This document shows positions 443-57,565 of a stretch of DNA of 64,000 nucleotides, in pieces (the stretch's first letter is position 1; each line of letters begins with the position of its first letter). The stretch spans positions 736,001 to 800,000 of the forward strand of contig OZ251219.1 in NCBI GenBank assembly GCA_965240465.1. Reading direction: 5' to 3'. A model generated the notes under the pieces. It saw nothing but the letters and a program-made list of their open reading frames with translations, had not been told where the DNA came from and did no database searches. Both the position numbers and the translations under genes were made by a program. Source of the stretch: a bacterium (GTDB lineage Bacteria; SAR324; JACQKK01).

Positions 443-461
443 TACATTATAGTCTCAGGAG

Positions 462-2324
462 TTAGCGTGCCAAGAATTTTTTACAGTTTTCAGGCGGTTG
501 ATTTTCATTTTTCATGTACTGGAAGACGATTTCTCTTAGGGTAAAGGGCAGTTGATATTGGATGGGCGGATTTTGGAGCAGAGCTCGGGTAGCTATGGTG
601 TTATGCCCTTGTCGGATGAAGTCAGTGCTCCAGACGAGGTATTTTTTACGCCAGCGGAGAGGGATTTGCGGGGTTTGCGGGGTTTGTGAGTTTTGGATGA
701 GGAGGGATTTAATGTCGCTGGTTTTGGATTTAGGTTTTTGTTGAAAGGTGAAGCCTCCTGGGTAGAGTGGAGTGAGTCCTCGGGGGCTGTAGTTATTTTT
801 CCATCGTACCATTCCAGTGAGTAGGATGGCGATTTGCTTACCTTGGGCGTGGAATTGTACTATTTGGTTGGGGTAGTAGAGCCAGCGATAGATGTGTTTT
901 CTAAGGACAGGGGTGTGTTGCTTTGGGTGGGTTTTCCATTGCTGAGCGTAGAGGATTTTAGGCAGGGGCAGCAGACTAAGTAGTGGAGCAGGAGCAGCTA
1001 TTGAGTTCAGTTGGAGGTAGTTTTTCAGGGCTTGATGCTGGAGATTACCCAGACAACGAGTAAAAGGTCGGCGTTGGCGTTTTAGGAGTTTCGGGATGAC
1101 GAAGTGCCAATCGGTAGGAGTGTTTAGACTATGTTGAGCTGCTAGGAAGCGTTTTTTGGCATAGTTCGGCAGTTGGGTTTGCTGTGGAGTAAGGGAGGGC
1201 AATAGAATTGCGGCGGCGGATATTTTAGGCGGAGTGCTGGGCGGAGTGCTGGGAGGAGTGCGTTGATTGGAGGGATTGTCGGGGTGAGATTTTAGTTTAA
1301 TACGAACGAGCATTAGTCCTCGCCCGCTGGAGCCTACTTCCAGCAGTGGAATGGGCTGAGCGGGTATTTGCCAGCGTAGTTGTTGGTAAGGAAGGGGAGC
1401 ATAAGATAGACGATGAGAACCGCCACTGAGTACGAGGTCGGGATGAGCCTCGGGAGGGAGTTTCCATTTCCAAGCGACCAAGCTGGCAGCAGCAGGCAGG
1501 GGTTGATTTTCAGTAGCAGCGCGTTCCCAGCCGTAAAAGGGGTCGGCACCGCTGTGCATAAGAGCAATGACCAGATTCACCTTTTCCACTTTCCTTAGGT
1601 GAGGCACCCAACGACGCAATCCCGCCCGAATGCTACCCATCCGCCAAGGACCTCGCCACTCGGCTGCCGAAGCTCTAAGTCCGGGCTGTCCAAAACCAAG
1701 CACTCCCACCGAGATATTACCTCTTTTAACAATCACATAAGGAGTAAATACAGGTTCTCCTTGAGGGTTCAGGGCATTGGCTGCCAGCCAAGCAAAATCG
1801 GAGGCAGAATGTGATTTTTCCAGATGTTTGGCATTCAAGTCATAGTTGCCTATCGCCATGGCATCCCAGCCGATTTGGTTCATCAGCTGGATTGCGGGCA
1901 AGTTGCCATACTTATCTGCGGGTGGTTTTTCTCGCAGAGATTCTTGTGGTAGCACGCTGGAAGATGAACCAAATAAGCTGTCCCCAGCATCTAGTAAGAT
2001 CAAGCGATGATGGCTCTGGTTCTGTATCTTTGCCAGCAAGCTTTGTAAAGGTATCCAGCCTCGCTGATGAGAATAAGTATCGGTGAGCAAGCCATTATAA
2101 TCGGCAGTGACCGCCAGCCATAAGCTTTCCTCATCGGGAGCAGCAGTACTCACCAGTTCTTTCTCAGCCGAGCCAAGCTGAGTAAATTGAAGATACCAAA
2201 CCAAACAGAACACAATAGCTACTGAGGCCATCAATAATAACAGGACTTTCCAGCCTAGTGAACTGGATAGCTGGGTAGCAATTTTCCTTGCCTGCTGGTT
2301 AGCACCTCTCATGTTGAGGGGCAT
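462..2324 (-). CDS. 5'-nucleotidase/UshA-like calcineurin-fold metallophosphoesterase with N-terminal membrane anchor (degenerate metal ligands)
   Basis: Motifs TADYNG, DAGDSLFGS, GWDAMAIGNYD, WLAAN, LMHSG, LSGGSH; hydrophobic segment near N-terminus. Confidence 0.75.
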   Translation of the reverse strand: MPLNMRGANQQARKIATQLSSSLGWKVLLLLMASVAIVFCLVWYLQFTQLGSAEKELVSTAAPDEESLWLAVTADYNGLLTDTYSHQRGWIPLQSLLAKIQNQSHHRLILLDAGDSLFGSSSSVLPQESLREKPPADKYGNLPAIQLMNQIGWDAMAIGNYDLNAKHLEKSHSASDFAWLAANALNPQGEPVFTPYVIVKRGNISVGVLGFGQPGLRASAAEWRGPWRMGSIRAGLRRWVPHLRKVEKVNLVIALMHSGADPFYGWERAATENQPLPAAASLVAWKWKLPPEAHPDLVLSGGSHRLSYAPLPYQQLRWQIPAQPIPLLEVGSSGRGLMLVRIKLKSHPDNPSNQRTPPSTPPSTPPKISAAAILLPSLTPQQTQLPNYAKKRFLAAQHSLNTPTDWHFVIPKLLKRQRRPFTRCLGNLQHQALKNYLQLNSIAAPAPLLSLLPLPKILYAQQWKTHPKQHTPVLRKHIYRWLYYPNQIVQFHAQGKQIAILLTGMVRWKNNYSPRGLTPLYPGGFTFQQKPKSKTSDIKSLLIQNSQTPQTPQIPLRWRKKYLVWSTDFIRQGHNTIATRALLQNPPIQYQLPFTLREIVFQYMKNENQPPENCKKFLAR

Positions 2325-2917
2325 CTTTTTTTCAGGGTTTGAGCCAACTGAGCTAACTGAACCGATTGAGCCTCGGAGCTGCTTTGAGTGCTTATTTTTC
2401 CTAAGAGTCGGGTTGCCATAGCTGGTTTCATGTTTTGTAAAATCTGCCCTAGTGATTCCAAGCCCAGACTAAGGGATGGTGGTTTGAGACGCTTTTTTAG
2501 GCTGCGATTGACATCTTTTAGTACCAGAGGAGATACGTGTTCCAGCGAAGCCATTCTCAGGGCTAGCTCTTGTTGTAGGGAACTAGGCATGGCTTGCAGC
2601 ACCGCGGCTGCCTGAGAGCGAGGGCGTATTTGCATTAGAACTAAGGTAGCTGCTTGAGGGTGCTCGGTACTGAGTAGCTGGGCGGTTACTGCGGCTGATA
2701 AATGATTTAAGGTTACGATTCCTCCTAGTTGGCTGAGCCGTTGCTGATAAAAATCACTCAGTACTTGGTTCACTTCAGCCCAGCTGGCATCGGCAGCCTG
2801 CTTAATGGAGCCTGCTACCTGATCTACTTGCTGAGGTTGCATGCGTGCCAACACTTGCTTAGCCCTTCTGTGACCCAGCGATAACAACAAAATAGCAGAT
2901 TTTCGTACTACTGACAT
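2309..2917 (-). CDS. FliG-like protein (N and middle domains only)
   Basis: RKSAILLLSLG, EHPQ motif, ELALRMASLEHVSP; likely start ATG 2917 rather than 2980. Confidence 0.75.
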   Translation of the reverse strand: MSVVRKSAILLLSLGHRRAKQVLARMQPQQVDQVAGSIKQAADASWAEVNQVLSDFYQQRLSQLGGIVTLNHLSAAVTAQLLSTEHPQAATLVLMQIRPRSQAAAVLQAMPSSLQQELALRMASLEHVSPLVLKDVNRSLKKRLKPPSLSLGLESLGQILQNMKPAMATRLLGKISTQSSSEAQSVQLAQLAQTLKKRCPST

Positions 2918-3106
2918 TATATCCCCAAGAAAACACCCCCATAACCCGCTTAAAGGCTTCTTATTAGGAGGTGCATGCAAAAATCGGGTCTTTTTATTTG
3001 CTCCTTAGTATCAAAAGGGGTTATCTTTGTGGTGGAGTGACTGGAGCATTACTCGGTATTACTCAGTGGTTGCTGGATACTCAAAGGATGGAGTTGTAAG
3101 GGAACG

Positions 3107-4849
3107 ATGGCATTAAATCTAAAACTTCAGCTGCGACAAAATCAGCAGTTGATCATGACCCCTCAGTTACAACAAGCGATTCGCTTGTTGCAGTTATCGC
3201 GTTTGGAATTGGAGTCATTGGTAAATCAGGCTTTGGTGGAGAATCCGGTTTTGGAGGAGGATGAAAACAGAGGCGAAGATATGGAGTCATCAGGCTTAGA
3301 TCAAGGGGAGGAGGGGGGTGAAGCGGGTAGTAGCCTAGATAGTACTGCAGATGGTGTTGCAGATGGTACTGCGGATGGTGTTGAAGATGGTACTGCGGAT
3401 GGTGTTGAAGATGGTACTGCGGATGGTGTTGAAGATGGTACTGCGGAGAATAACGTGGATGATGGCGGGGATTTGATTAGGAACGAGCAGCATGAGGAGA
3501 CTGACCGTGACTGGCAAGAGTACATAGAGAGTGGTTCGGGAGTTATTCCAGAGCGTTCAGCAGGCAAGAGCGGTGAGGAGCCTCAGTTGGAAGCGATTTT
3601 ATCTAGGGATGAGTCTTTACGGGAGCATTTGCTGTGGCAGTTAAAGATGACTTCTTGGAGTGATGCCGAACGGAAGTTAGGTAGGCAGTTGGTAGGCAAT
3701 TTGGATGAGGATGGCTATTTGGTTGTGAGTTTGGGGGAGATATTGGAGACCAATATAGCCTTGGCTGGTGAGTTTGAGGAAGAACTTAAGCAAGAGCGTT
3801 TAACCTTATCTCAGGATGGTTTAGATTTGGAGTTATTGTGGGTGAAGCATGATTCCAAGCCCGCGGGCAAGGAAGGAAATCTTAGAATTAAGCCAGCGGT
3901 TGCTTTGGCTGCTGAAGCCGTTTTGCAGCAGGTGCATCAGTGGGATCCAGTTGGTTGCGGCACTCGTAATTTGCAGGAGTGCTTAGTGGCACAGCTAAAA
4001 TCCATGGGACTGGCAACTCATCCAGCCATACATATCATACACAAAGACCTAAAACTGCTGGAACGCCGCGACCTAAATAAAATAAGCTCCCGACACAAAC
4101 TGAGCCTCGCAGATACCATCGCCGCTTGGCAATTAATAACCTCCCTGGAACCTAAACCAGGCCGCCCCTTCACCGAAAGCCGAGCGGTGAACATCATCCC
4201 CGATGTCTACCTGTTCAAAGTGAACAACCCTGTCAATGCTAGTGATGTCATCGGCAATTATAGGATCTCCCTCAATGAAAATGGCATCCCGCGTCTACGT
4301 ATCAGCGAGTATTATCGCCTGCTGTACGAAAAATCCAACGATAGTAATTCCTTGACCAACCAATATCTGCAAGAAAAAATCAAAGCTGGACAATGGCTCA
4401 TGCGTAGTATTGAACAACGACAAAAAACCATCCTTAAGGTTTCTCAAAGCATCGTTAAACACCAATATGAATTCTTTGAAAACGGCATTGATAATCTAAA
4501 ACCCCTGGTACTAAAAGATATTGCAGAAGACATCGGAGTACACGAATCAACCGTCAGTCGGATAACCACCAACAAGTACATGCACACCCCGCAAGGACTA
4601 TTTGAACTAAAGTACTTCTTCACCAGCGGAGTAGGACAAGAAGATGGAGAAATAATCTCCTCTAAAAAAATCAAGGACATGATCCTCAAACTGGTTAACA
4701 AGGAAAATCACCGCAAACCTTATACCGATATCCAAATCGCCGATATCTTGAACCAAGAATTTAAAATCAAGGTTGCTCGCCGCACGGTCGCCAAATATCG
4801 TGAAGCCCTAAATGTGCTACCTTCTAATTGCAGAAAAAAATTGTTTTAA
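3107..4849 (+). CDS. rpoN: RNA polymerase sigma-54 factor
   Basis: N-terminal MTPQLQQAIRLLQLS, HESTVSR helix-turn-helix, RpoN box ARRTVAKYRE. Confidence 0.98.
   Translation: MALNLKLQLRQNQQLIMTPQLQQAIRLLQLSRLELESLVNQALVENPVLEEDENRGEDMESSGLDQGEEGGEAGSSLDSTADGVADGTADGVEDGTADGVEDGTADGVEDGTAENNVDDGGDLIRNEQHEETDRDWQEYIESGSGVIPERSAGKSGEEPQLEAILSRDESLREHLLWQLKMTSWSDAERKLGRQLVGNLDEDGYLVVSLGEILETNIALAGEFEEELKQERLTLSQDGLDLELLWVKHDSKPAGKEGNLRIKPAVALAAEAVLQQVHQWDPVGCGTRNLQECLVAQLKSMGLATHPAIHIIHKDLKLLERRDLNKISSRHKLSLADTIAAWQLITSLEPKPGRPFTESRAVNIIPDVYLFKVNNPVNASDVIGNYRISLNENGIPRLRISEYYRLLYEKSNDSNSLTNQYLQEKIKAGQWLMRSIEQRQKTILKVSQSIVKHQYEFFENGIDNLKPLVLKDIAEDIGVHESTVSRITTNKYMHTPQGLFELKYFFTSGVGQEDGEIISSKKIKDMILKLVNKENHRKPYTDIQIADILNQEFKIKVARRTVAKYREALNVLPSNCRKKLF
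3338..3447 (+). repeat. In-frame 24-bp tandem repeat (about 4.5 copies, TADGVEDG) in RpoN acidic region II
   Basis: GTACTGCGGATGGTGTTGAAGATG repeated. Confidence 0.95.
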
Positions 4850-4864
4850 GCACGTTCTAACTCT

Positions 4865-7001: not shown

Positions 7002-7093
7002 TGATAAAAGCCTGCCGATGCATAGCTTATGAAAGCCTATCAGGCACTAAGCAGCTCTATAAAAAGAAACGAAATAATCCCCCTTTACATACA

Positions 7094-8658: not shown

Positions 8659-8976
8659 AACTATATTCTAACTTAGAATTGTCTGACTAATCAGTTTCTA
8701 GAATAATAACCTATTATCACGATTATTATACCTAGAACAAAACTAATCAATGTATTTTTGTAGATATTGTGTAGAGACATGATGATAAATACCGTATATA
8801 AAATTTAATATTTGACTATTGCTAATTCATCTGGAAACCTGTTATTAAATTCTAAAAAGTTCATACCCATACCTCCATTGATATGACCATATCGTACTCA
8901 ACCATTTAATGTACGTCAAAGGATTATTCCGAGAAGAAATACCTAAGGAGTACCCTAAGTAGCCTTATCAAAAGAA

Positions 8977-10978: not shown

Positions 10979-11021
10979 TTGCTCTGTTGGGTATGGTAGA
11001 AGTTAGAATCGCTCCTATTAT

Positions 11022-23758: not shown

Positions 23759-23937
23759 TAAGGGGTTTTTGATGAGAATATCTATGATGCATTCCTAAAG
23801 GGAGGGGGGAGAGGGGAGTATTATTCAATTCTGCCGATATGCTTACAGAATTTAATCAATATGGTTTTTGGTACTTAAAGCATCGGGTATATTATAAGGT
23901 GTTATTGTTTTAATAGCTTTGTATAGGGAAAATTTTA

Positions 23938-24327: not shown

Positions 24328-24520
24328 CTGGGGGCAGATTTGATGCAGAGGCAAGTTCTATCCAGAGGCAGATATTAGCTGGGGGCAGATTTGATGCAGA
24401 GGCAAGTTCTATCCAGAGACAGATTTGATGCAGAGGCAGGTTCTATCCAGAGGCAAGTTTTATCCAGAGGCAAGTTTTATCCAGAGGCAAGTTTTATCCA
24501 GAGGCAAGTTTTATCCAGAG
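24325..24520. repeat. Higher-order tandem array of about 17-bp units between convergent HIT and aspC stop codons
   Basis: ATCCAGAGGCAAGTTTT, ATGCAGAGGCAAGTTCT and TAGCTGGGGGCAGATT variants. Confidence 0.92.
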
Positions 24521-25764
24521 GATTGCAAGGTGGTTTTGATGGATTCCACCACATAGTCCAAGTTTTCAGAAGTCAGTGCAGAGACATTAATTCTTCCGCT
24601 GTCTAGGAAGTACACTCCAAAGCGTTTACGCAAGGTGAGGGCGTGTTCAGGGGATAAGTTGGTGAGGGCGAACATACCCCTTTGGCGAATAATGGGAGAG
24701 AAGTCAATCTCTGAAATGGAAGAGAGGCGTTTTGCAAACAAGCCCCGCATTTTTTGAATTCGCAGCCGCATTTGGACGATTTCTGCTTCCCACTGGGTTT
24801 TTATCTTTGGGGTGTCCAGCAACAAGAGAGCGACTTGTCCTCCATGGGAGGGGGGATTGGAATAAAGAGCTCGGGCGTGAAATTTGGCTTGGCTGAGAAC
24901 CAGTCGGGCTTGCTTGGCATTCTGGCATACGATGACCAAAGCTCCAGTTCGTTCTCGGTAGATACCCATGGTTTTAGATAAGGTATAAGTGATTACAAAG
25001 TCTTGTCCGCTTTCGGCAAATATCTTAATGGCTTGCACATCTGCTACCATGCCATCACCGAAGCCTTGGTAGGCACAGTCCAACACCGCTAGGGCTCCTG
25101 TTTTAGCTAATACAGTGGTTATTCTCCGCCAGGTATCGGCGGTCATATCGATTCCGCTGGGGTTGTGGCAACAAACCTGTAGTACCACCACATCTCCCCG
25201 AGATACCTTTTGCAACTGGGCGAGCATCTCTTCTTCCCGCAGGCTGTAGGTAGATGAGTCCAGATATGGATAGTATTCCACCTTCATTCTCGCAGCTTGG
25301 AACAAACCCTTATGTCCCACCCAGCTGGGAGTACTCAGCCAGACGGTCTGGCTACCTAAGGTACGGGCTGATAAATCTGCCAACAAACGTAATGCCCCTA
25401 CTCCCCCAGTCGTGTGAAGAGATACCACCCGCTGGCTATCCAGCAGAGGATGCTCTGCTCCCAACAGAAGTTCTTGCACGTGCCGACCGTAACGGGCTTC
25501 TCCCTCAATACTTAAGTAAGACTTAGAGGTCTCTTGCTCTAGTAGCAAGGCTTCGGCTTGTTTAACGCTTTTTGGCACCGAATTAACACCAGTATCATCG
25601 GTGTATACTCCCGCGCAGAGGGTTATTTTTTCGGGACGGGGGTCGGCTCTGTATTGCTCCAGCAAACTAAAGATAGGATCCTGAGGTGCCGCAATATCAA
25701 TGGCCGATAATGGATGATTCAGATGGGCTAAAGAAACTCTGGAATCTTGATTTTGGTTCGGCAT
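24511..25764 (-). CDS. aspC: Aspartate/aromatic amino acid aminotransferase (class I)
   Basis: GVYTD, CCHNPSGID, DCAYQGFG, SKTMGIYRERTG, SGRINV. Confidence 0.9.
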   Translation of the reverse strand: MPNQNQDSRVSLAHLNHPLSAIDIAAPQDPIFSLLEQYRADPRPEKITLCAGVYTDDTGVNSVPKSVKQAEALLLEQETSKSYLSIEGEARYGRHVQELLLGAEHPLLDSQRVVSLHTTGGVGALRLLADLSARTLGSQTVWLSTPSWVGHKGLFQAARMKVEYYPYLDSSTYSLREEEMLAQLQKVSRGDVVVLQVCCHNPSGIDMTADTWRRITTVLAKTGALAVLDCAYQGFGDGMVADVQAIKIFAESGQDFVITYTLSKTMGIYRERTGALVIVCQNAKQARLVLSQAKFHARALYSNPPSHGGQVALLLLDTPKIKTQWEAEIVQMRLRIQKMRGLFAKRLSSISEIDFSPIIRQRGMFALTNLSPEHALTLRKRFGVYFLDSGRINVSALTSENLDYVVESIKTTLQSSG

Positions 25765-41132: not shown

Positions 41133-42031
41133 TTTTTCTCACTTAATACTTCGTTCATGGCGCCACTTCTAAAGCCGAGCAGGTCCAAGGATATGTACGT
41201 CCAGCCCAGAGAACTTAATTTTCGCTGTACCATCTGACGTTTCTCCAGTAGCAACTTGAATTCAACAGGAAGCACCTCCAAACGGGCCACTTCTCCATGA
41301 TGGCGAACTCGCAACTGGCTAAATCCTAAGGAATGTAGCCATTCTTCAGCCACTTCAATTCGTTGTAATAGCTGGGGGTTGATGGTCAGTCCGTAGGCTA
41401 CCCGACTAGCCAAGCAGGGAGTTTGTGGTTTATCGGCAATTTTCAGCTGGTAGAAATGTGCCAGAGCCCGCACTTCTTGTTTTCCTATCCCGCACTCTGC
41501 TAGGGGAGCTCGTACCATAAACTCAGCCGCTGCCCGAAGTCCAGGGCGATGTCCTCTAAGGTCATCAGCATTGGTGCCACTAAGGATCACTGCCTCCTTA
41601 GCCAACCGAGAAAGCCTAGCAAATAGGGTGCTCTTGCAAATATAACAACGATCAGCCCCATTAGCACGATAATCCGCTCGGGACATTTCCTCGGTGTGAA
41701 TAACCCGGTGGGACAGCCCCCATTGCTGTGTTAATTTGTAGCAGAGTGCTAAGTCGGAGCGTTTCAAACTGGTGGAATCAGCGGTGACTGCCAGAGCCTG
41801 CTTCCCCAGCTGACGTCCTGCGAGCCACGCCACTAAGGAGCTATCTACTCCGCCTGAAAAGGCTATCACTACCCGCTTAAAAGGAGCAAACCAAGCCTCC
41901 AACGCCAGTCGCTTGGCAGTCAAATCAGAAGACTGCGAGATGGAGGAATCAGCTGCCCGTTTAGATATCGCAACTGGGCTAATAGATTTTCCCAATTCGG
42001 GACGGAAAGTAATCGGTTTGGACATTATCAA
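41129..42031 (-). CDS. larE: LarE-family ATP-dependent sacrificial sulfur transferase
   Basis: AFSGGVDS PP-loop, RCYICK, GTNADD..GHRPG, PCLASR, RVRHH, GFRSGAMN. Confidence 0.88.
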   Translation of the reverse strand: MIMSKPITFRPELGKSISPVAISKRAADSSISQSSDLTAKRLALEAWFAPFKRVVIAFSGGVDSSLVAWLAGRQLGKQALAVTADSTSLKRSDLALCYKLTQQWGLSHRVIHTEEMSRADYRANGADRCYICKSTLFARLSRLAKEAVILSGTNADDLRGHRPGLRAAAEFMVRAPLAECGIGKQEVRALAHFYQLKIADKPQTPCLASRVAYGLTINPQLLQRIEVAEEWLHSLGFSQLRVRHHGEVARLEVLPVEFKLLLEKRQMVQRKLSSLGWTYISLDLLGFRSGAMNEVLSEKK

Positions 42032-43132: not shown

Positions 43133-43274
43133 GCCAAATTTCTCTTGTTAAGGGTTCGGTAAATTTAATCATTTTCCATGTTGGATAAGCAAGATCCGAG
43201 CCATGACAGCCAAACAGAAAAGCTACAGCTAGCAGCTACAGATAAAAAACTAAGCAAAGGTGTTCTGCCGTTTT

Positions 43275-43943
43275 TCAAGCTTGGTTATGGCGGACTATAT
43301 TACCCTGTGCCATATAGATGACATCTTCGGCTATGTTAGTGGCGTGGTCGGCAATGCGTTCCATGCAGCGGCAGATATTTAATTGGGAGATGAGTGTTTC
43401 CAGTTGGGAGGGGTTTTGTTGCATTTCTTGCAAGGCTTGTTCAAAGATAACCCGATTAAGATCATCTACTTCATCATCCATGATGCGTACTGCTTGGGCT
43501 TGTTGGGAGTTCATATCGGTCATGGATTGGAGGGCTTGTTCAAGCATTTGGCAGGTTTTGGTAATGATGGTGTTCAGTCCTAGGTTGACATCAGATCTAT
43601 TTTGGTTGGCGATGATGGAAACTCTTTTAGAAATGTTGACTGCTAAATCTCCGATACGTTCTAGATCATTATTGATCTTCATTATGGCTACCAGATAACG
43701 CAGGTCGCTGGCTACGGGTTGATAGAGGGCGAGTATCTTCAGGCATTCTTCTTCAATATCCACTTCCATAGCATCAATTTCTTGATCTTTGAGGATTACT
43801 TGCTGAGCTAGTTCGGCATTGAGTTCCTTAAAGGAGCTTATCGCCTGCAGTACTTGCTGGGATACTTGATTTCCCAGCTGCTGGATATTCTCACGCAGCT
43901 TATCAATTTGTCTTTGGAGACGGGGAGGAGTGTCGGTATGCAT
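43275..43943 (-). CDS. phoU: Phosphate signalling protein PhoU
   Basis: YQPVASDLR, DLERIGDLA, ERIADHATNIAE. Confidence 0.98.
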   Translation of the reverse strand: MHTDTPPRLQRQIDKLRENIQQLGNQVSQQVLQAISSFKELNAELAQQVILKDQEIDAMEVDIEEECLKILALYQPVASDLRYLVAIMKINNDLERIGDLAVNISKRVSIIANQNRSDVNLGLNTIITKTCQMLEQALQSMTDMNSQQAQAVRIMDDEVDDLNRVIFEQALQEMQQNPSQLETLISQLNICRCMERIADHATNIAEDVIYMAQGNIVRHNQA

Positions 43944-43972
43944 TTTGAGGTCTTAGTGGAGGGGGGGGGGGT

Positions 43973-44153
43973 GCGGGTATGGTGTCGGGATTGCGGGTGT
44001 TATTGCGGTGTTATTGCTGGGGGTGCGGGTATGGTGTCGGGATTGCGGGTGTTATTGCGGTGTTATTGCTGGGGGTGCGGGTATGGTGTCGGGATTGCGG
44101 GTGTTATTGCGGTGTTATTGCTGGGGGTGCGGGTATGGTGTCGGGATTGCGGG
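43973..44153. repeat. 52-bp G/T-rich perfect tandem repeat x3.5, preceded by a G11 tract (43961-43971)
   Basis: Units start at 43973, 44025, 44077, 44129; no spacers. Confidence 0.96.
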
Positions 44154-44165
44154 GGGTGGGGGGTG

Positions 44166-45044
44166 TTAGCCGAAGCGTCCAGTGATGTAGTTTTCGGTGC
44201 TAAGACACTTTGGTTGGGTGAACAGGTTTCGGGTTTTGTTGTACTCTAGCAATTTACCCAGATAAAGAAAAGCAGTGTAGTCCGATACCCGTGCGGCTTG
44301 CTGCATGTTATGGGTGACGATGATGACAGTATAGTCCTTTTTAAGTTGACTAATCAATTCTTCAATGCGGGCGGTAGCAATGGGGTCTAGAGCCGAGCAG
44401 GGTTCATCCATGAGGATTATTTCTGGGTTGATGGCGATGGCTCGGGCGATACAGAGTCTTTGCATTTGACCTCCTGAGAGTCCCAGTGCTGATTCGTGCA
44501 ATCTGGTTTTCACTTCATCCCAGAGGGCAGCCGCCCGCAGGCTTTTTTCGGCTTTTTCTTCTAAGGTTTGGCGATCATTTATTCCCGCAATGCGGAGGCC
44601 GTAAATAGTATTTTCATAGATGGACTTAGAAAAGGGATTTGATTGCTGAAAGACCATCCCTACCTTTTGTCGGAGGGCGATAACATCCAGTTCGGCTTGG
44701 TTGATATCTTGATTGTCTAGTAGGATACGTCCTTGGGTGTGGACGCTTTCCACTAGGTCGTTCATGCGATTTAAGGCTCGTAGCAGGGTGGATTTTCCAC
44801 AGCCTGAGGGTCCAATGAAAGCGGTGACCCTACCTTTGGGGATATCCATGTTGAGGTCGGAAATGGCAGGCTGCGGGCCATACGATATAGACAGGTCTTC
44901 AATTTTTAGCAGGGGTTTGGAGATCTGAATACAGAAATGTTTCGGTCTTTTGCTGTTATGGGTGGGGCTACCCGAGGACAGACTAGCAGCTGGGTACTTG
45001 GGTAGCTTAACAGCATGAGTAGGAGTTTTTTCTTCCATGGACAA
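44166..45044 (-). CDS. pstB: Phosphate ABC transporter ATP-binding protein
   Basis: [38 protein letters not shown]. Confidence 0.98.
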
Positions 45045-45120
45045 TTAAGATTAGGCGATTAGGAGATTAGGCGATTAAGATTAGGAGATTAAGATTAGGA
45101 GATTAGGCGATTAAGATTGA
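45045..45120. repeat. Mosaic 6-8 bp repeat directly upstream of the pstB start
   Basis: ATTAAG, ATTAGGCG and ATTAGGAG units. Confidence 0.85.
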
Positions 45121-45247
45121 GCAATTAAATTGGTATGCAAACAATGAATAATAGCAAGAGATTAAAAAATAGGAGGGACAAATAGAAAAAAGGGGTACTG
45201 ATCATCTGAGCAAAAACTGCCAAAAGCCTATCAGGTACTACAGCAAG

Positions 45248-46864
45248 CTAGAAGGCACTCCCTTGGTAATAGCGGCGCATGCGATTACGCAACCAGATGC
45301 CAGTCAGGCTGATAATAATGACGATAAATATCAGCAGTAAAGAGGTAAAATAGACCAAAGGTTCGGCGGCTTCGGCATTGGGAGATTGAAAGCCAAGATC
45401 AAAGATATGGAATGCCAAGCTCATGAATTTACGCTCCAGATGAATATAAGGGAAGGTAGCATCAAGAGGCAATTGAGGAGCAAGTTTAACTACTCCCGTG
45501 AGCATGAGGGGGGCAGTTTCGCCAGCAGCTCTAGCGATTGCTAGTACGAAGCCAGTTAGGATACCAGGGGTGGACATCGGTAGGACTACTCGGGTGAGGG
45601 TTTGAAAGCGGGTGGAACCCAGGGCGTAGGCTGCTTGTCGCATGCCCTTGGGAATGGAAGATAAACCCTCTTCTGTAGCTACGATGACCACTGGTACCGT
45701 CAGCAGTGCCATAGTGAGACTAGCCCAAAGAATACCTCCACTGCCAAAGGTGGGGGTAGGCAATCTTTCGGGGAAGAAGAAATGGTCCAGTCCGCCACCT
45801 ACTCCATAAATGAAGAATCCCAGCCCAAAGATGCCAAATACAATGGATGGCACCCCAGCCAGATTATACACAGCTACCCGCACCAATCGTAACAGAAATC
45901 CTTCTTTGGCGTATTCACAGAGATAAATGGCAGTTAGGACGCCCAAGGGAATACAAAATATACTCATTAAAAATACCAACAGGACAGTGCCAAAAATGGC
46001 TGGGGCAAGTCCTCCTTCGGTGTTGGCTTCGCGGGGTGAATGGGTCAGGGTGGTAGTCAGCTTCTTGAGGGATACCCATATTTTGCCGGGCAAAGACATA
46101 TCATTAGGAGCAATCACTCGTACAATGTCTATCATGGCGATCGGAATGAGCTGCCCTCGGCTATCTTGGAACAGGGCTTGATTACGCTCCAGCCGTTTCA
46201 GCTTGATTTGTAGCTGGAGTCGTTTTTGCTCAAATGTATCTGCCAGTTGCTGCTGGTGGATCTCCAAATTTTGGATGGTCTGAGCATTTTCGGTTGCATC
46301 CCGCCAGCTAAGCCGCAATGCCTTTAAGCGTAGGCGTTCTTGACGCTGTGAGATGGAACTAAGGTCGTGCTGTTGCTTCTTCAGGGTGGTGTACTGCTGG
46401 CGAACGGTTTTCAGGACAGATCGCCAAGGAATGGATAGCGTAGCTGTGGATTTTATGCTCGGGTCATGTAGCAATGCGTGGAAGCGTCCATAGAAATCCC
46501 CAAATTCTTCTCTTTCTAGTACCAGTAGTCCTCTGGGTTTGGAGTAAGAAGCTACTTTCTCAAATGAGACCCATTGAAATTCGTTGGAGAGTTCTCGGTT
46601 GCCCGTTTTCAGCTTCCAGTTGGCAGGCTGTTCCTTATTAGGAGGGACCTTCTCGCGTAGCTGTCCCCAAACAACCAGCCCTGATTTTAGTCGTAGCTCC
46701 AAAACATCTTGAGGCCACAAAAACCTGAGACCATTCACCAGCAACAATCCCATCAGTAAAAAAGCCATCAGCAAGGTGAAGCTCACTACTCCCCCAGACA
46801 GCCAGACCCACCTCTCCCCTTGAGGAACTGAACCAGCAGATAAACAGGAAACCTTCTTAAACAT
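45248..46864 (-). CDS. pstA: Phosphate ABC transporter permease PstA (long form)
   Basis: PREANTEGG..PAIFGT, NLAGVPSIVFG, ARAAGETAPL. Confidence 0.95.
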   Translation of the reverse strand: MFKKVSCLSAGSVPQGERWVWLSGGVVSFTLLMAFLLMGLLLVNGLRFLWPQDVLELRLKSGLVVWGQLREKVPPNKEQPANWKLKTGNRELSNEFQWVSFEKVASYSKPRGLLVLEREEFGDFYGRFHALLHDPSIKSTATLSIPWRSVLKTVRQQYTTLKKQQHDLSSISQRQERLRLKALRLSWRDATENAQTIQNLEIHQQQLADTFEQKRLQLQIKLKRLERNQALFQDSRGQLIPIAMIDIVRVIAPNDMSLPGKIWVSLKKLTTTLTHSPREANTEGGLAPAIFGTVLLVFLMSIFCIPLGVLTAIYLCEYAKEGFLLRLVRVAVYNLAGVPSIVFGIFGLGFFIYGVGGGLDHFFFPERLPTPTFGSGGILWASLTMALLTVPVVIVATEEGLSSIPKGMRQAAYALGSTRFQTLTRVVLPMSTPGILTGFVLAIARAAGETAPLMLTGVVKLAPQLPLDATFPYIHLERKFMSLAFHIFDLGFQSPNAEAAEPLVYFTSLLLIFIVIIISLTGIWLRNRMRRYYQGSAF

Positions 46865-46873
46865 GGATAGGTC

Positions 46874-49180
46874 TTAATGACGAGAAAATTTATAACGCAA
46901 ACGGGAACGCACCAATTCGGCTAAGGAGTTAATGATAAAGGTAGCCATAAACAACAGGGTAGCCGTTAGAAACAGGGTACGGTACAAGGTGCTATCTCGG
47001 GGTGCTTCGGGGACTTCCACCGCAATGTTGGCAGAGATGGTACGCATGCCAGTAAAAATGCTAGCATCAATAATGGGAGTATTCCCCGCCGCCATTAAGA
47101 CAATCATGGTCTCACCTACTGCTCGTCCTAGCCCCAGCATCAAAGCCGCAAAGATGCCCGCACTGGCAGCAGGTAAGATCACTCGCCACAGGGTCTGCCA
47201 GCGAGAAGCCCCCAAGGCTAAGGAAGCCGCCGTCAAGCGACGAGGTACATTGCTTAAGGCATCCTCAGAAATGCTGAAAATGCTGGGAACAACTGCAAAA
47301 CCTAAGGCAATGGCAATCACAATGGCATTGCGTTGATCGTAGTAAATATCCCAGCGCTGAAACAACCATTCAGTCAGAGGACCCTTAAGCCAAAATTTGT
47401 CTAGCAGACTGCCCAGCCAACCAGCCAAGAAAATACTCACCACTACTAGGGGTACGACTGCTAAAAATTCTCTGCTGCGGAAAAACTTCAGCCAACCCCA
47501 AGAATACGAAAACTTGTTCACCAAAGCCATTAACACTAAAATAACTACTGGTAACAAACCCAGACCAAGCAATATACTGCTGAGGCTAGTTTCCACTAAG
47601 GGTGCAAGCCAAAAGGCAGCCAAAAAACCTAAAATCACCGTTGGTACAGCATCCATCAGTTCAAAAATGGGTTTGACAATGTTTCGTAGCCGAGTTTCCA
47701 TCATTTGGCTGGCGTACATGGCACTAAACACACCCAAGGGGGCTGCAAATAGCATTCCGTAAAAAGTAGCTTTCAAGGTACCAAACACTAAGGGTATTAA
47801 GCTCAGCTTGGGTTCGGTATCTTCTGCAGTGGAGGACTGCCAGATATACTCTGGCTTTTGGTATCCCTCATAAAAAATCCGACCAAAAAAAGCTCTCAGC
47901 CCTCCTTCAGGATGGGAAGCATCCAGCTCCCAAATGCTGGCTCTCCCCTGATAATCAAGAGCAAAAATACTCTGATCCCGCAAATCTAGAGCTGCCATAG
48001 CTAAGATATCTCCAGCTTCTTTAGGACCAGACAAAGGCAAATCTGCCAAAACACGACCACTAGTATTATGACTAAAAGCCACCGTGCCATCATCTGCCAA
48101 GCTGAGCAAACTCTTAGAGCGTGAAGCAGTCACAATTTGTTGCACTGGAGCCTCGTGTGCCTGCCAAGTACGCAGAGCCGTCAATTCTGGTGTAATTGAG
48201 GACTCGCCAGAGGGAGTGGTAAAAACGGGCACTTTTATAACTAGCCAGCTACTGATGCGTCCATTTGCATGCCCTGCCAAGAGGGTATCATCACCCAGTA
48301 GCAAACTGAGGGCAGTTATCGTAGCCAGTCCACTTTGTTGACTGATGACCGCTAAAGGACCTGGGGGAGTGTCTTCATCAGCATGCCAGTAAAACAGCCG
48401 ATCCCCATAAGCCGCATAGGCATTACGCCCATCGGCACTGAGAGCCAACAAGGGAGGCTCGGTATTCTCGCCTGTATTCGTCGCGGATAAGATCCAGTCT
48501 TGATGGATGTTCTCTCCATCTCCAAACAAGCCTTCAGTTTTTCGCCAGTGTTCCAGCAGCAAGCGTCCATCGGGGAGCAGGCTAAGACGGCTATCAGATT
48601 GAGGGTTTTGTCGGAGAATTGCGTTCAGGGGCAGTCCTGAGCTAGCAGGTGAAATGGTAGATAAATTGGCAGGTGCTGATTGCTGACTAAGAATCTCCCA
48701 GTGAGGTACAATGGTGCGTTGTTGATCCTCATCAAACTGGGGCTTGACCCCGATGATTACTAAGCTGCTGGCAGCGTTTTTCCAGAACAAGCTGTAGCGA
48801 CCGTGACCGAGCGAGTGAACGTGCTTTAATTGCGAGCCTTTTCCGATGGTATTCAGGTTGTATTGGGCTTGGATTTCGCCTGAGTTTAGCTCAAAGAATT
48901 GCAGTTGGCTTTTCTGGTTGATGGTGAATCCGAGCTGTTTATATTCTCCGATCCCCAAGAGCAGTATTTTATCCTTTTTTAACGCCTGTTCCAGTGGGAG
49001 TTGCTGTACTAGCTTCAGTCTGGCGGGTGAGAACAAAGGCAAGGCTACCGTGGCTATCAAAGCCAACATGCCTAGCACGCAGACGATGACCCCAACCCCA
49101 CCCGCAGTTACTATTCCAGTTGCCAGTTTATCTAGGTACTTGGCGCGGTATTTTCGGTTGATTTTTTTACTAGCTAACAA
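46874..49180 (-). CDS. pstC: Phosphate ABC transporter permease PstC (long form with beta-propeller-like insert)
   Basis: PLVFGTLKAT, KPIFELM.AVPTV, YDQRN, GRAVGETMIVLM. Confidence 0.93.
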   Translation of the reverse strand: MLASKKINRKYRAKYLDKLATGIVTAGGVGVIVCVLGMLALIATVALPLFSPARLKLVQQLPLEQALKKDKILLLGIGEYKQLGFTINQKSQLQFFELNSGEIQAQYNLNTIGKGSQLKHVHSLGHGRYSLFWKNAASSLVIIGVKPQFDEDQQRTIVPHWEILSQQSAPANLSTISPASSGLPLNAILRQNPQSDSRLSLLPDGRLLLEHWRKTEGLFGDGENIHQDWILSATNTGENTEPPLLALSADGRNAYAAYGDRLFYWHADEDTPPGPLAVISQQSGLATITALSLLLGDDTLLAGHANGRISSWLVIKVPVFTTPSGESSITPELTALRTWQAHEAPVQQIVTASRSKSLLSLADDGTVAFSHNTSGRVLADLPLSGPKEAGDILAMAALDLRDQSIFALDYQGRASIWELDASHPEGGLRAFFGRIFYEGYQKPEYIWQSSTAEDTEPKLSLIPLVFGTLKATFYGMLFAAPLGVFSAMYASQMMETRLRNIVKPIFELMDAVPTVILGFLAAFWLAPLVETSLSSILLGLGLLPVVILVLMALVNKFSYSWGWLKFFRSREFLAVVPLVVVSIFLAGWLGSLLDKFWLKGPLTEWLFQRWDIYYDQRNAIVIAIALGFAVVPSIFSISEDALSNVPRRLTAASLALGASRWQTLWRVILPAASAGIFAALMLGLGRAVGETMIVLMAAGNTPIIDASIFTGMRTISANIAVEVPEAPRDSTLYRTLFLTATLLFMATFIINSLAELVRSRLRYKFSRH

Positions 49181-49304
49181 ATAGACATTCTTTCTTGAGA
49201 GACGCCAAGCGGTACCGTCCTACCCAAAAAAGGCAATGGGTGTATATTGGCCTTATCCATTGCTGGAAATGTTTAAGTACAAGCGGGGCTAGTAGAAGGC
49301 TCAC

Positions 49305-50330
49305 TTACAGTCCTAATTTTTTTCTTATTTTACGGGCTTCTTTATAAGGCAAGGGGAAGTAGCCATCTTTTATCACCACTTGTTGACCCTCTTTGGATAA
49401 AACCAAGTCCAAGAAATTCTTCGTTAGGGAGTCCAAGGGTTTTTTGGGCTGTTTAGCCACATAGATATACAGCAGTCTGGATAAAGGATAATTGCCATTT
49501 AAGGCAGCTTGGGGAGTAGGAGCATAAAAGCGGCCTTTTCTCTTGCCTAAAGGGACTATTCTCACGTCTGCAGTGCTGTAGCCGAAGCCACTATAACCTA
49601 TTCCAGCTACATCCCCAGCTACGCCACCGACCACCGCAGAAGATCCAGGTTGCTCCTTTACTACCGAGCGATAATCACCCCTAAACAAGGCTACCTTCTT
49701 GAAATAGTCATAAGTCCCCGAGGCAGAATTACGACCATAAAGACTAATTGCTCGCTTGGTTAAGCTCCCCTTCACTCCGACTTGCCCCCAAGTGACAATT
49801 CTCTTGGGACTACCTCCTTTGCGAGTACTGGAAAACATTGCATCCAGCTGAACTAAACTCAATCCCTGGATGGGGTTGCTTCGGTGAACATAAATCGCTA
49901 AGGCATCTACCGCGACTGGCACTTGAGTCGGCTTGTATCCATGCTTATTCTCAAAAGACTCCAGCTCTTTCAGCTTCATTGCCCGAGACATCGGACCTAG
50001 CCTAGTAACGCCCTCAGTCAGGGCGGGTGGAGCCGTGCCAGAACCCTTGCCCTCTATCTGAACATTCACATTGGGATAGTAAGAACGAAATCGCTCCGCC
50101 CACAAGGTCATTAGATTATTGAGCGTGTCGGAACCAATGCTGTTCAAATTACCGCTCACCCCAGCCTGATGCCGATATGCAGGATAGGCTTTATCCACCT
50201 TAGTCTGTGCCTGCGATGCCGATGCTGATGACAACCCCATAAATGCTACCCCCATAAATGCCACCCCTAATACCAGAAAAGCCCTAACACGAACTAGGAG
50301 CCTAATTCTGGAATCAACTAGATCTGCCAT
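49305..50330 (-). CDS. pstS: Phosphate-binding periplasmic protein
   Basis: [34 protein letters not shown]; in-frame GVAFM duplication in signal peptide. Confidence 0.96.
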
Positions 50331-50659
50331 CGCCTGTTTCCCTATTCTATGTCTTCTGATGGTGTTGCCTTATGGAATGCTCGGCTTCATAAAAACATGC
50401 CCTCATTATCTCTATCTGGATTGAAAGCATTGTCAACTATTTTCAACATTTTTGCCCATAAAAACCCATCTCAAGTAGATGAATTGCTAACTAAACAAGT
50501 ACCTGCTACAATGTGAATTGTCGCTGATTATGTGCCAATACCAGCCATGTAATGGTGGGGTAAGCGGTAGAGTAGTCTCTACAGTAGACCAGCAATCAAT
50601 AGGTGGTTGTTGTATTTGGGGGGTTGTTTTGGATACGAAAAATTGATAAGGAGAAATGA

Positions 50660-52649: not shown

Positions 52650-52776
52650 CTTTGGACGGACTGCTCTTGCGGACAGCTTGGACGGGAATTTTTTACGAAC
52701 CGCTTGGACGGACAGCTTGGACGGACAGCTTGGACGGACAGCTTGGATAGACAGCTTGGATAGACAGCTTGGATAG
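52650..52776. repeat. 13-bp tandem repeat array upstream of scpB
   Basis: CTTGGACGGACAG and CTTGGATAGACAG units. Confidence 0.9.
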
Positions 52777-53798: not shown

Positions 53799-53905
53799 AA
53801 CTCAAAAATTTCCTCTGATTGAAATATAGCACATCCGCTGTGAGAACAAAACAAAGCACCCCCCCCCACCGTATCAACTACTTGATAATAATACCACAGC
53901 ACAAA

Positions 53906-54676: not shown

Positions 54677-55019
54677 ATCATGTTCCTCATTGATACTTTA
54701 CGGTGCAACCCTAGCATAACATTTATAAGATCAAAAGATAACGCTTATCTATTCAAGAATAATGCAAAACACAGCTCTAAGGCAGTAAAAAAGTACAATC
54801 ACTTTCTCACCACCAAACTGGATACTCTCACATCACCACAATTTTTAACAATAATCAAGGTCTAAGTGTAACATTAGATCAGCATTTTGTACCCGCAATA
54901 GGTAAATCAACACCTAAGCGATGTCGCTTGTATCATGTGACTTATGTGATTTATGAAGTTTCTCAACTAAATTATCACAGTTCCTTTGCAACCTGTTTTT
55001 GAATATCATAACAGATGAT

Positions 55020-55092
55020 GCCCATGTAGCTCAGTTGGTAGAGCAGCACATTCGTAACGTGCAGGTCGTCGGTTCAATTCCGACCGTGGGCT
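55020..55092 (+). tRNA. tRNA-Thr (CGT)
   Basis: GCCCATG/CGTGGGC acceptor stem, loop TTCGTAA. Confidence 0.93.
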
Positions 55093-55177
55093 TTCGTGTT
55101 TATCGTGCAAAGTTTATCGTGCAAAGTTTATTGCGCGAGGGCAGTCTATCTTTGGTGTGTATAGGATGTGAGAATGG

Positions 55178-55232
55178 TCATGAGCTGGGGTCATGAGCTG
55201 GGGTCATGAGCTGGAGTCATGAGCTGGAGTCA
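55178..55232 (-). repeat. 13-bp repeat x4 copying the msrB 3' end and stop codon
   Basis: Minus strand C(T/C)CCAGCTCATGA x4; adjacent 14-bp GTTTATCGTGCAAA repeat after tRNA-Thr. Confidence 0.93.
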
Positions 55233-55809: not shown

Positions 55810-55915
55810 AGATCAGCCTGGCCGCATGATAGTTCAAGTAATAGATAGTTTGCCAGTTTTAATGTGTTTCTGTCAAAAATTACAAGAATATACTCCTCAT
55901 ATTTTGCTGTAATTT

Positions 55916-56938
55916 ATGTCCTTTATCAACCCGATGCGTTTATTGGCTGTAGTAGGTCCCACCGCTAGTGGCAAGAGTCAATTGGCAGCCAGCTTGGCAG
56001 CCGACTTAAATGCAGAAGTGGTCGGCGCGGATGCGGTACAATGCTATCGTCAGGCTAAGATCGGGGCCGCTCAGCCCTCTGATGCAACTAGAGCTCGGGT
56101 GGTGCATCATTTGGTGGGTTTCTTGCCCTCGGGGACACCTTACTCGGCTGGTAAATATGCCGAACAGGCTCGGGAATTGATTATCAATCTATGCAGCAAA
56201 GGAAAAACAGTGGTCTTGTGCGGGGGATCGGGCTTATATCTGGATGCCCTACTGCGAGGGTTTTCTCCTCTGCCGAGCATACCAGCGGTTATTCGTAGTC
56301 GGGTGAGTGCAACACTTCAGCCCCTTAGCAATCAAGAGTGCCACGCACTGCTGCAAAGCAAAGACCCCGTCATAGCTCGGGTAACTAACCCTGCCGACCG
56401 TCAAAGAATAGCCCGAGCACTAGAAGTAGTCCTAGCTAGTGGAACCCCCTTAAGTGAATACCAAACCCAACCCAAAATACCTCTGCCAGCCACAATCCTA
56501 GCATTCGGCATCAGCTGGCAACGAGCAGAACTATACCAACGAATCGCCAAACGAACTCACTCCATGCTGGCAAATGGACTCCTAAAGGAAACCCGAGAAA
56601 TACTCAATAGCGGTTGCTGCCCCAGTAGTCCGCCCCTGAACGCAGTAGGATACCAACAGGCACTCAGCTGCATCAAAGGAGAACTAAACCACACCGAACT
56701 CCCAAATCTCATCATTAAGCGCACCCGTCAACTCGCCAAACGACAACTCACCTGGCTCAGACATCACGGCTTTGGAGATCCTGAAAAACCCGCTCTCTAT
56801 CAAGACCAACAGCTATCTCTATCCACTCATTGGCTACCTCCTCCACCATTTCTTGCTCCTCCACCCCAGACCCCAAAAAATAACCACTCCCTGCCCGAAA
56901 ATATTATCTCCCTAGCTCGGAAATTCTTAAAGGGCTGA
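55916..56938 (+). CDS. miaA: tRNA dimethylallyltransferase
   Basis: GPTASGKS, HHL, GGSGLY, RALEV, AVGY, AKRQLTW; stop region CTTAAAGGGCTGAT duplicated (56926-56953). Confidence 0.95.
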   Translation: MSFINPMRLLAVVGPTASGKSQLAASLAADLNAEVVGADAVQCYRQAKIGAAQPSDATRARVVHHLVGFLPSGTPYSAGKYAEQARELIINLCSKGKTVVLCGGSGLYLDALLRGFSPLPSIPAVIRSRVSATLQPLSNQECHALLQSKDPVIARVTNPADRQRIARALEVVLASGTPLSEYQTQPKIPLPATILAFGISWQRAELYQRIAKRTHSMLANGLLKETREILNSGCCPSSPPLNAVGYQQALSCIKGELNHTELPNLIIKRTRQLAKRQLTWLRHHGFGDPEKPALYQDQQLSLSTHWLPPPPFLAPPPQTPKNNHSLPENIISLARKFLKG

Positions 56939-57026
56939 TCTTAAAGGGCTGATGGCACCAGCAATCGCTATTCAGGCTTATCTCTATAAGCAGACTTAGC
57001 TAAAAGTTGCCGTCTGGAGTAGATTA

Positions 57027-57074
57027 AATTACACTGAGAATTGCACTGAGAATTGCACTGAGAATTGCACTGAG
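57027..57074 (+). repeat. 12-bp repeat x4 just before the next start codon
   Basis: AATT(A/G)CACTGAG x4. Confidence 0.92.
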
Positions 57075-57076
57075 AC

Positions 57077-57565
57077 ATGTTTCTACTCGATAACCTTGCC
57101 ATGAACAAGAATTCCTACCAAGATCCTCCCCAATCCTCGGCTGAACCCGCACCAACAACCGAAACCGTCGCTCACCCGAACGTGCAAACGATCGGTATTC
57201 AAAACTTCAGCATCTTTAGCACCTCTCAGCAACAGGGCCTGTGGAGACTCCATTTCATTTGGGGCAAAAAGGATTTTTGCCTCTTCTTGCAGCCCCAAGA
57301 AAGTGTGCGTCAAAGCAATAGCTTGGCGGTACTCGGTAACAATGATAAATTGCTCCTCACAGTCACCAGATTACAATACCTGCGTGGATTCCAGTGGTAT
57401 GACTACCACAAAGTAAGTCTCCATAACCTAGCCTATGAAGAAATTTGCTGGAAGCTGGAAGGATTAAAACACTATGTTGAACTACCCAAAGATTTCTTGG
57501 ATATGGCTATAGAACTGGCTTGTCGGGCATTTGATCTGCGTCGCATCAGTACTGATACCTCTTGA
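57077..57565 (+). CDS. Hypothetical protein
   Basis: 162-aa ORF filling the gap; no family recognised. Confidence 0.6.
   Translation: MFLLDNLAMNKNSYQDPPQSSAEPAPTTETVAHPNVQTIGIQNFSIFSTSQQQGLWRLHFIWGKKDFCLFLQPQESVRQSNSLAVLGNNDKLLLTVTRLQYLRGFQWYDYHKVSLHNLAYEEICWKLEGLKHYVELPKDFLDMAIELACRAFDLRRISTDTS

Follow-up and report, generated by a model that had tools for sequence, protein, structure and literature searches.

Alternating GC-skew domains in a SAR324 genome form a gene-locked sawtooth

The DNA analysed here is a window of 64,000 nucleotides (nt) from the genome of a SAR324 bacterium (JACQKK01; GenBank assembly GCA_965240465.1, contig OZ251219.1; G000:C1:736001-800000, where G000 denotes the genome), in which the + strand is alternately rich in G and T and rich in C and A over kilobase-scale domains. 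A preliminary description of the window took these domains for the marks of many mini-origins. Our analysis revealed that the domains make up a sawtooth locked to the genes and are not switches of replication: silent sites of the coding strand lose G and gain C along genes in the 5' to 3' direction, and a jump in the spacers restores the skew. The sawtooth is a genome-wide property that extends beyond the window, and among the sampled genomes it is restricted to the genus. The best explanation, to which a probability of roughly 0.45 is assigned, is an amplified, lineage-specific, strand-asymmetric mutation pressure coupled to gene expression.

The genome holding the window (the host genome) is a single contig of 1,599,138 bp with 45% G+C. 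It was compared with a sister species of the same genus (G001; one contig of 1,724,560 bp), with a family relative that served as the main control (G008; 400 kb used), and with 20 short pieces from 18 other relatives of the same family and order as further controls. Between the two species of the genus, 943 reciprocal best hits with a median amino-acid identity of 63% were taken as orthologs, of which the 841 pairs with at least 30 four-fold degenerate G+C sites in both genomes were used. The open reading frames (ORFs) of the window are ordinary housekeeping genes, including rpoN, sthA, hemE, panC, infC, mreB, lpxA, tpiA, secG, a relA/spoT-like gene, gmk, pstSCAB-phoU, lipA, and miaA. The closest matches to LipA, 54-59% identical, were metagenome-assembled genomes (MAGs) carrying mixed labels, among them several of Bdellovibrionota.

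Along the genes of the host genome, G at four-fold sites of the coding strand fell from 0.216 to 0.151 and C rose from 0.229 to 0.307 in the 5' to 3' direction, with T and A flat. The four-fold composition of the family relative was flat along genes throughout, with no gradient. The median slope of the coding-strand four-fold skew was about -0.2 per kb. Negative slopes were obtained for 338 of 446 genes in the host genome and 347 of 463 in the sister species, compared with 45 of 94 in the family relative, and the ratio of negative to positive slopes at p<0.01 was 106:6, 137:4, and 1:3, respectively. The gradient was equal in leading- and lagging-strand genes. The two ends of genes diverged with gene length, with both ends moving and the difference saturating at about 0.4-0.5 above 1.6 kb, and mid-gene skew stayed at the baseline of its leading or lagging class whatever the length of the gene.

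Since a gradient from a G-rich 5' end to a C-rich 3' end is its own reverse complement, genes of either direction run from G-rich to C-rich on the + strand, and the jump back from C to G falls in the spacers, where it mimics an origin at the gene boundary. The skew jump across spacers was positive in 241 of 331 cases in the host genome, 248 of 356 in the sister species, and 42 of 78 in the family relative; the skew change within genes was negative in 447 of 581, 485 of 647, and 64 of 138, respectively. The sawtooth appeared in each of the four ways in which neighbouring genes can be arranged, whether tandem, divergent, or convergent, and it reproduces the earlier picture of abrupt switches in spacers and tRNA regions and gradual reversals inside genes. 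The features of the window are as follows; skew across a spacer is given from left to right on the + strand and was compared in the 550 nt on either side of the named position.

460..57300, no strand: gene-periodic GC-skew sawtooth with a weaker TA skew.
2981..3106, no strand: up-switch spacer between a divergent FliG-like gene (-) and rpoN (+), skew 0.04 to 0.41 at 2990.
3107..4849, + strand: rpoN, internal G-to-C gradient with four-fold G/C by quarter of 15/5, 10/12, 14/27, and 6/19 (slope -0.70 per kb, p 0.001).
10979..11021, no strand: up-switch spacer between the tandem + strand genes hemE and an unknown ORF, skew -0.04 to 0.33 at 10960.
24511..25764, - strand: aminotransferase gene, the gradient as seen from the other strand, + strand G/C 33/9, 20/14, and 15/18 (slope -0.71 per kb, p 0.006).
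36599..37528, + strand: tpiA, coding strand extremely G/T-rich (four-fold GC skew +0.55, four-fold TA skew +0.58), just downstream of 16S rRNA, tRNA-Ile, and tRNA-Ala.
38090..38869, - strand: CcsB-like membrane protein gene, coding strand extremely G-rich (four-fold GC skew +0.72; + strand G/C 5/34 and 4/21), so that the + strand is C/A-rich there.
38870..39163, no strand: sharpest up-switch spacer in the window, with tRNA-Met (- strand, 38915-38990) and a 13/26-nt tandem repeat, skew -0.56 to 0.29 at 39000.
39164..42031, - strand: row of larE, gmk, and a relA/spoT-like gene, coding-strand skew from about 0 in the 5' gene to about -0.8 in the 3' gene (+ strand G/C from right to left 20/20, 18/16, 24/9, 21/6, 31/4, 22/4, and 18/1).
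43275..50330, - strand: row of pstS, pstC, pstA, pstB, and phoU, coding-strand skew from slightly positive in pstS (+ strand G/C 12/17) to strongly negative in phoU (25/3).
50331..50659, no strand: up-switch spacer between divergent genes, skew -0.20 to 0.21 at 50520.
54677..55216, no strand: up-switch spacer with tRNA-Thr (+ strand, 55020-55092), skew -0.20 to 0.17 at 55090.
55916..56938, + strand: miaA, internal G-to-C gradient, G/C 18/15, 11/16, and 4/24.

Much of the preliminary description was borne out by these measurements. Its counts by hand in lines of 60 nt were exact in all five cases (24 G and 5 C at 3721-3780, 8 and 18 at 4021-4080, 26 and 3 at 37141-37200, 3 and 23 at 38461-38520, and 14 and 4 at 39601-39660). 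Five of the seven C-to-G switches that it named are clear and are those listed above, that at 23790 is weak (0.03 to 0.18), and that at 43260 was not seen at the 550-nt scale (0.15 to 0.17). All seven positions lie in spacers of the ORF map, with tRNA genes at those near 39000 and 55090, and the five G-to-C transitions that it placed inside genes (1550, 4000, 37950, 53550, and 56300) were all confirmed and do fall within ORFs. The fixed positions of the switches and the contrast of G(/T) with C(/A) likewise fit what was described. The statement that the skew is independent of gene direction is correct for the appearance of the + strand, but gene boundaries fix the phase.

The strength of the skew exceeds both chance and that of ordinary genomes, as had been claimed. 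The standard deviation (SD) of GC skew in 500-nt windows was 0.196 in the window, whereas 100 shuffles averaged 0.066 and did not exceed 0.075, and the variance of the G-fraction at four-fold sites genome-wide, in blocks of 60 G+C sites, was 8.6 times the binomial variance. The SD of 1-kb skew was 0.178 in the host genome and 0.174 in the sister species versus 0.078 in the family relative, and the per-gene SD of coding-strand four-fold skew was 0.33 in both species of the genus versus 0.16. In the 20 control pieces, the 500-nt SD was 0.03-0.10 except for one 8.7-kb piece (0.136), and the median of 20-kb chunks of the host genome was 0.175. Contigs of two public sequencing runs matched the window over kilobases with 0 differences and broke at tandem repeats, variants being almost confined to tRNA, rRNA, and tandem-repeat stretches, and a third run gave only short identical pieces at low depth. 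These contigs probably come from the source sample and hence are not independent support; as far as can be told, the skew pattern is not an assembly artefact.

The boundaries of the pattern follow the genes closely. The G-rich side sets in within non-coding DNA, about 125 nt before the start codon, and the C-to-G switch occurs 25-50 nt past stop codons. The skew was reset by 0.2-0.3 at gaps of at least 80 nt; at overlapping genes, the reset was 0.14 in the host genome (n=71) and absent in the sister species (n=104). Flanking spacers correlate with the skew of the gene (r 0.41 upstream and 0.32 downstream), and in the window the skew decreases steadily from gene to gene along both the larE-gmk-relA-like row and the pst row. 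The asymmetry is thus oriented by gene direction and common to the non-coding parts near the gene, as is typical of transcription-associated asymmetry. This boundary behaviour points to the expression unit rather than to replication, but a gene-based model fitted slightly better than a crude transcription-unit model.

The composition of the affected sites was consistent across codon families. Among genes, the skews of all eight four-fold codon families rise and fall together (r 0.57-0.68), and codon-family make-up predicts a per-gene SD of 0.06 versus 0.31 observed. The removal of previous- and next-base context lowered the per-gene SD only from 0.146 to 0.130, by which nearest-neighbour context (e.g., a TpC-specific change) was rejected as the main cause, and context-corrected skew in disjoint context classes correlated at 0.49-0.79. 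Two-fold codons shift in step, with G/(G+A) going from 0.445 to 0.332 and C/(C+T) going up. Relative to their orthologs in the family relative, high-skew genes gained Gly, Val, Arg, Glu, and Asp and lost Gln, Pro, Ile, Asn, and Thr, and the imbalance of G and C at codon positions 1 and 2 tracks silent-site skew only in the host genome. Taken together, the co-variation of the families, the sharing with spacers, the independence of context, and the protein shifts indicate a regional pressure at the nucleotide level, acting on one axis, that alters proteins.

That axis is shared by replication, gradient, and gene-specific offset, and along it C is lost, G is gained, and amino acids are replaced in the sense of G for A or C. 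The vectors for leading minus lagging strand and for 5' minus 3' gene parts ran near-parallel to each other and to the first principal component of gene composition (G up, C down, and T slightly up), with a cosine of about 0.94. An axis of G(/T) against C(/A) is classically ascribed to asymmetric damage of single strands.

The largest part of the skew variance is the gene-specific offset. In 300-nt windows, gene means accounted for 64.7% of the variance, leading/lagging status together with the gradient for 13.9%, and sampling noise for 29%. The skew of orthologs in the host genome and the sister species correlated at r 0.63 (841 pairs), and r lay at 0.60-0.65 for all four combinations of kept or changed leading/lagging status; when the sites used for one species had none in common with those used for the other, r was still 0.50 (split-half reliabilities 0.76 and 0.79). 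The offset travels with the gene when neighbours change, r being 0.52 where neither neighbour was conserved (n=114). Slopes are conserved as well (r 0.47; 230 pairs both negative, 26 both positive, and 93 discordant). Synonymous sites between the two genomes are nearly saturated, with 36.1% of the shared four-fold sites identical versus 30.0% expected from gene-by-family composition. Since the skew is correlated despite near-saturation, strand change, and disjoint sites, it is renewed gene by gene in both lineages and is not left over from inversions. No correlation was found with orthologs of the family relative (r -0.02, n=110), which indicates that the skew is not a universal property of the proteins.

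A mutation pressure coupled to gene expression would make the coding strand of each gene, and partly of each transcription unit, rich in G at its beginning and in C at its end. Exposure or damage would fall relatively more on the coding strand near the 5' end and on the template strand toward the 3' end; R-loop-type feedback may reinforce the asymmetry, and the gene-specific offset and the single-origin replication skew would be layered on the gradient. Both the mutational nature of the pattern and its connection to transcription are thus proposed on the basis of the composition and geometry described above.

Several observations weigh against this explanation. We infer the link to transcription from geometry alone. 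Leading/lagging status and the gradient explain just 13.9% of the variance, so the offset is mainly set by something else, and the hydrophobicity of the ortholog in the family relative predicts it modestly (r 0.32). The offsets of same-strand neighbours correlate weakly, at r 0.26 and 0.15 overall and about 0.3 in tight operons, within a full range of 0.15-0.32. Presumed highly expressed genes are mid-range (tuf +0.08, rpoB +0.02, and rpoC -0.02), presumed ribosomal-protein ORFs beside tuf lie between -0.2 and +0.1, and groEL lies at -0.59. The flanks of the 44 tRNA genes are no stronger than ordinary spacers (+0.09 downstream and -0.055 upstream), by which strong promoters were rejected as sources of skew. 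C-richness at 3' ends is the same with tandem and convergent neighbours and thus gives no sign of antisense transcription coming from adjacent genes. Four-fold sites show almost no change in T and A, which departs from the prediction of simple C-to-T deamination and renders unlikely the simple processive deaminase that the preliminary description had considered.

A further difficulty is that no genus-specific loss was found among 12 families of replication, repair, and termination proteins. None of the 5 genomes searched for it yielded family-1 ung; all 5 had rnhA, rho, mfd, mutS, fpg, and rnhB, whereas mutL and a family-4 uracil-DNA glycosylase were detected in 7 of 7, and dnaA and priA each in 6 of 7, the seventh being a relative with an incomplete genome. 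A search for mutY failed in the host genome, which has a weak match to the mutY model at 626580-627029 (1.9e-16, below the cut-off), but mutY was present in the sister species and three relatives; missing in the host genome only, it cannot explain a trait common to the sister species. As a separate observation, DnaA of the two species of the genus scored 207 and 203 bits against its family model, compared with 307-347 bits in the relatives.

A stronger and unlikely version of feedback is a self-maintaining skew state of each gene, in which transcripts of the G-richer strand, sense or antisense, would escape Rho and form stable R-loops and the displaced strand would lose more C, renewing the imbalance. 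If true, the skew state would be a compositional memory inherited with the locus despite the turnover of individual silent sites, and would explain the same skew of orthologs in two saturated genomes and the dragged protein sequences. Strong feedback would predict bimodal gene skew and was rejected in that form; the distribution is broad with a single peak.

Among the alternatives to mutation pressure, selection on messenger RNA composition ranks second, although we consider it doubtful. A G-rich 5' part would resist Rho and premature termination and a C-rich 3' part would load Rho, or the imbalance would keep the RNA unstructured. Such selection would suit a pattern phased to the ends of transcripts and ORFs, with the 5' leader included, as well as a conserved gene-specific offset; rho is present, hairpin-plus-T-run terminators are not enriched (16 found versus 21.0 +/- 4.9 expected in 20 kb), and Rho utilization (rut) sites are biased to C over G in the excerpts of PMC13650167 and PMC6407284. 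A rut-like excess of C over G is indeed present at 3' ends, but as a kilobase-long gradient that ends at the stop codon, compared with the unstructured, ribosome-free stretch of about 80 nt, upstream of the release site, that makes up a rut signal. The C-richness ends 25-50 nt past the stop and does not extend into untranslated RNA, the gradient spans whole genes over more than 1.5 kb, far beyond the need of a rut site, and relatives that have rho show no gradient. Selection on RNA also cannot explain a replication skew on the same axis, and the bias carries protein composition with it. A by-product of codon usage, amino-acid make-up, or nearest-neighbour context is less probable still and largely contradicted. 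A coding-strand baseline of C over G at four-fold sites exists in the family relative too (-0.17), skew is correlated with hydrophobicity and with how T-rich codon positions 1 and 2 are, in weak form in the family relative as well, and a context model correlates at 0.76 with the observed skew. However, codon-family make-up and context account for little of the spread as shown above, non-coding flanks have the skew of their gene, presumed highly expressed genes are not extreme, and orthologs in the family relative are uncorrelated. A residual contribution of protein type, with r of about 0.3, remains.

The mini-origins of the preliminary description, whether fixed or arising by R-loop- or break-primed local bidirectional DNA synthesis every few kb, are very improbable. 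Switches do have origin-like polarity, as described, at 70-73% of spacers, the compositional axis equals that of the replication skew, and the effect grows with distance over about 1 kb. Nevertheless, an ordinary single-origin replication skew is present under the sawtooth: cumulative GC skew of the host genome has one minimum at about 610 kb and one maximum at about 1,560 kb, with the sole dnaA match at the minimum (605,074-606,393), and the sister species is alike. From these positions, the window lies on the replichore where the + strand is leading. The replichore-wide bias remains (G-fraction 0.544 vs 0.437), and the difference that leading/lagging status makes to the skew of a gene is only about +/-0.1 to 0.13. 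The switches in the window are local and lie away from the global minimum and dnaA; their polarity reverses within genes, resets within tens of nt after stop codons, and fades at overlaps and operon junctions, and the offset follows the gene when neighbours change. DnaA-box-like words were not enriched in spacers (9 in 62 kb versus about 19 expected from genome-wide density), no k-mer marking strong-jump spacers was significant after multiple-test correction (best p 4.8e-4 in 1272 tests and 3.5e-4 in 438 tests), so that no common motif was found at the switch points, and priA, rnhA, and rnhB are present as in relatives. Still less credence is given to a patchwork of many recent inversions in a strongly replication-skewed genome, which is already contradicted. 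Synteny with the sister species is much broken, with window genes mapping to several of its regions, 317 of the 841 orthologs differ in leading/lagging status, and merely 50.6% of genes are on the leading strand. Inversion patches would have intergenic breakpoints and decay to the new orientation; switches were found inside intact genes, strand-changed genes have largely re-equilibrated (means -0.20 vs -0.04 and -0.05 vs -0.18), and gene skew is conserved in all four strand classes (r about 0.6) despite near-saturated synonymous sites.

Two other replication-based candidates were rejected. Fixed lagging-strand priming sites (an Okazaki-zone model) predict a length effect only at the 5' end of leading-strand genes and only at the 3' end of lagging-strand genes; both ends vary in both strand classes, with G and C both changing in both. 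Fork stalling at spacer repeats would, by reasoning, give the wrong sign, and repeats do not strengthen the jumps: spacers with and without tandem repeats had jumps of 0.165 vs 0.154 (p 0.58) in the host genome and 0.128 vs 0.183 (p 0.10) in the sister species.

Tandem repeats are themselves a conspicuous feature of the genome. They are very numerous, short, and often perfect, with periods of about 8-54 nt and 2-10 copies, each array having its own unit, and are concentrated in or next to spacers (e.g., 36703-36777, 37580-37638, 39072-39145, 43967-44153, and 52652-52773). Tandem Repeats Finder (TRF) returned 60 rows for the window; the host genome has 609 arrays (38 per 100 kb), compared with 25 per 100 kb in the sister species and 16 in the family relative. 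The public contigs break or vary at several of these repeats (37599/37611, 42159/42161, and 51425-51512). The repeats recall the pervasive ones of Borg elements described in the excerpt of PMC9879509, which concerns tandem repeats and there uses skew only for replichores. Spacers are also marked by runs of at least 8 G or C, about 20-fold denser than in a sample of ORFs and over-represented in the window (12 versus 3.45 expected; e.g., 43961-43971, 53859-53867, and 27081-27089), and by enrichment of the -35-like word ACTTGACA.

Other observations concern single loci. In the window, 16S rRNA (34529-36049), tRNA-Ile (36486-36559), and tRNA-Ala (36566-36640) are followed by tpiA and secG in place of 23S rRNA, which makes this a split rRNA operon. 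Three tandem paralogous giant ORFs of about 950-1050 aa (57686-60847, 60891-63752, and 63925 onward past the window) had no NCBIfam match; they contain internal repeats of 87-96 nt and 294 nt, their codons have a GC skew of +0.7 at position 1 and -0.5 at position 3 and a TA skew of +0.5 at position 3, and other large genes like them, from elsewhere in the genome, occupy the lowest ranks when genes are ordered by skew. Two islands of low G+C, 7001-8700 (0.30) and 29700-33925 (0.34-0.41), carry adenine methyltransferase-like genes, one of them also a restriction-endonuclease-like gene, and are probably acquired restriction-modification systems. Outside the window, G000:C1:255696-271494 contains a full rnhA followed by four fragments of its 3' end only, about 3.1-3.5 kb apart and each interrupted by a stop, which suggests a tandem array of units of about 3.3 kb, and a selenocysteine tRNA was predicted at G000:C1:118512-118610.

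Local and per-gene GC skew serves for calling origins, inversions, and assembly errors, and a gene-locked gradient can imitate origins; likewise, genes of the wrong sign need not be inverted. The strand bias is strong enough to reshape proteins, persists gene by gene across two species whose silent sites are saturated, and was absent from those relatives, with larger genomes, that were sampled; it suggests that this lineage has altered the damage, repair, or selection of DNA or RNA along expressed genes. No description of a bacterial 5'-to-3' G-to-C sawtooth was found in full-text searches of open-access papers, and one may exist elsewhere.

An excess of G and T on the non-template strand, associated with transcription in bacteria, has reportedly been described by Francino and Ochman and by Beletskii and Bhagwat. 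The sawtooth is like that asymmetry in being oriented by the gene and not the fork, in its keto-enriched 5' parts, and in affecting silent sites. It differs in that the sign changes along the gene, the skew does not appear to be tied to presumed expression level, the per-gene spread is about twice that of the family relative, and protein composition is shifted. Like the replication skew between oriC and ter, it has switches of C-to-G polarity and an axis on which C is lost and G gained on one strand; unlike it, the period is one gene, the switches lie at ORF ends, and the normal skew coexists. In unicellular fungi, opposite GC skews occur at gene ends, with the coding strand C-biased at the 5' and G-biased at the 3' end, according to the excerpt of PMC3315797; that pattern is likewise phased to transcription with opposite ends, but it is eukaryotic and of reversed sign. 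The GC skew and R-loops of human promoters in the excerpt of PMC3787257 are also phased to transcription but eukaryotic. Negative gene-level GC skew is taken as a sign of gene inversion in the excerpt of PMC6220195, in which per-gene skew likewise stands against the replichore; here the two disagree in both species regardless of orientation, and also within genes, so that the skew cannot be read as inversion history. The rut regions of the PMC13650167 and PMC6407284 excerpts are alike in having C-rich, G-poor RNA toward gene ends, and the bias found here differs from them in being a gradient of the whole gene that ends at the stop codon.

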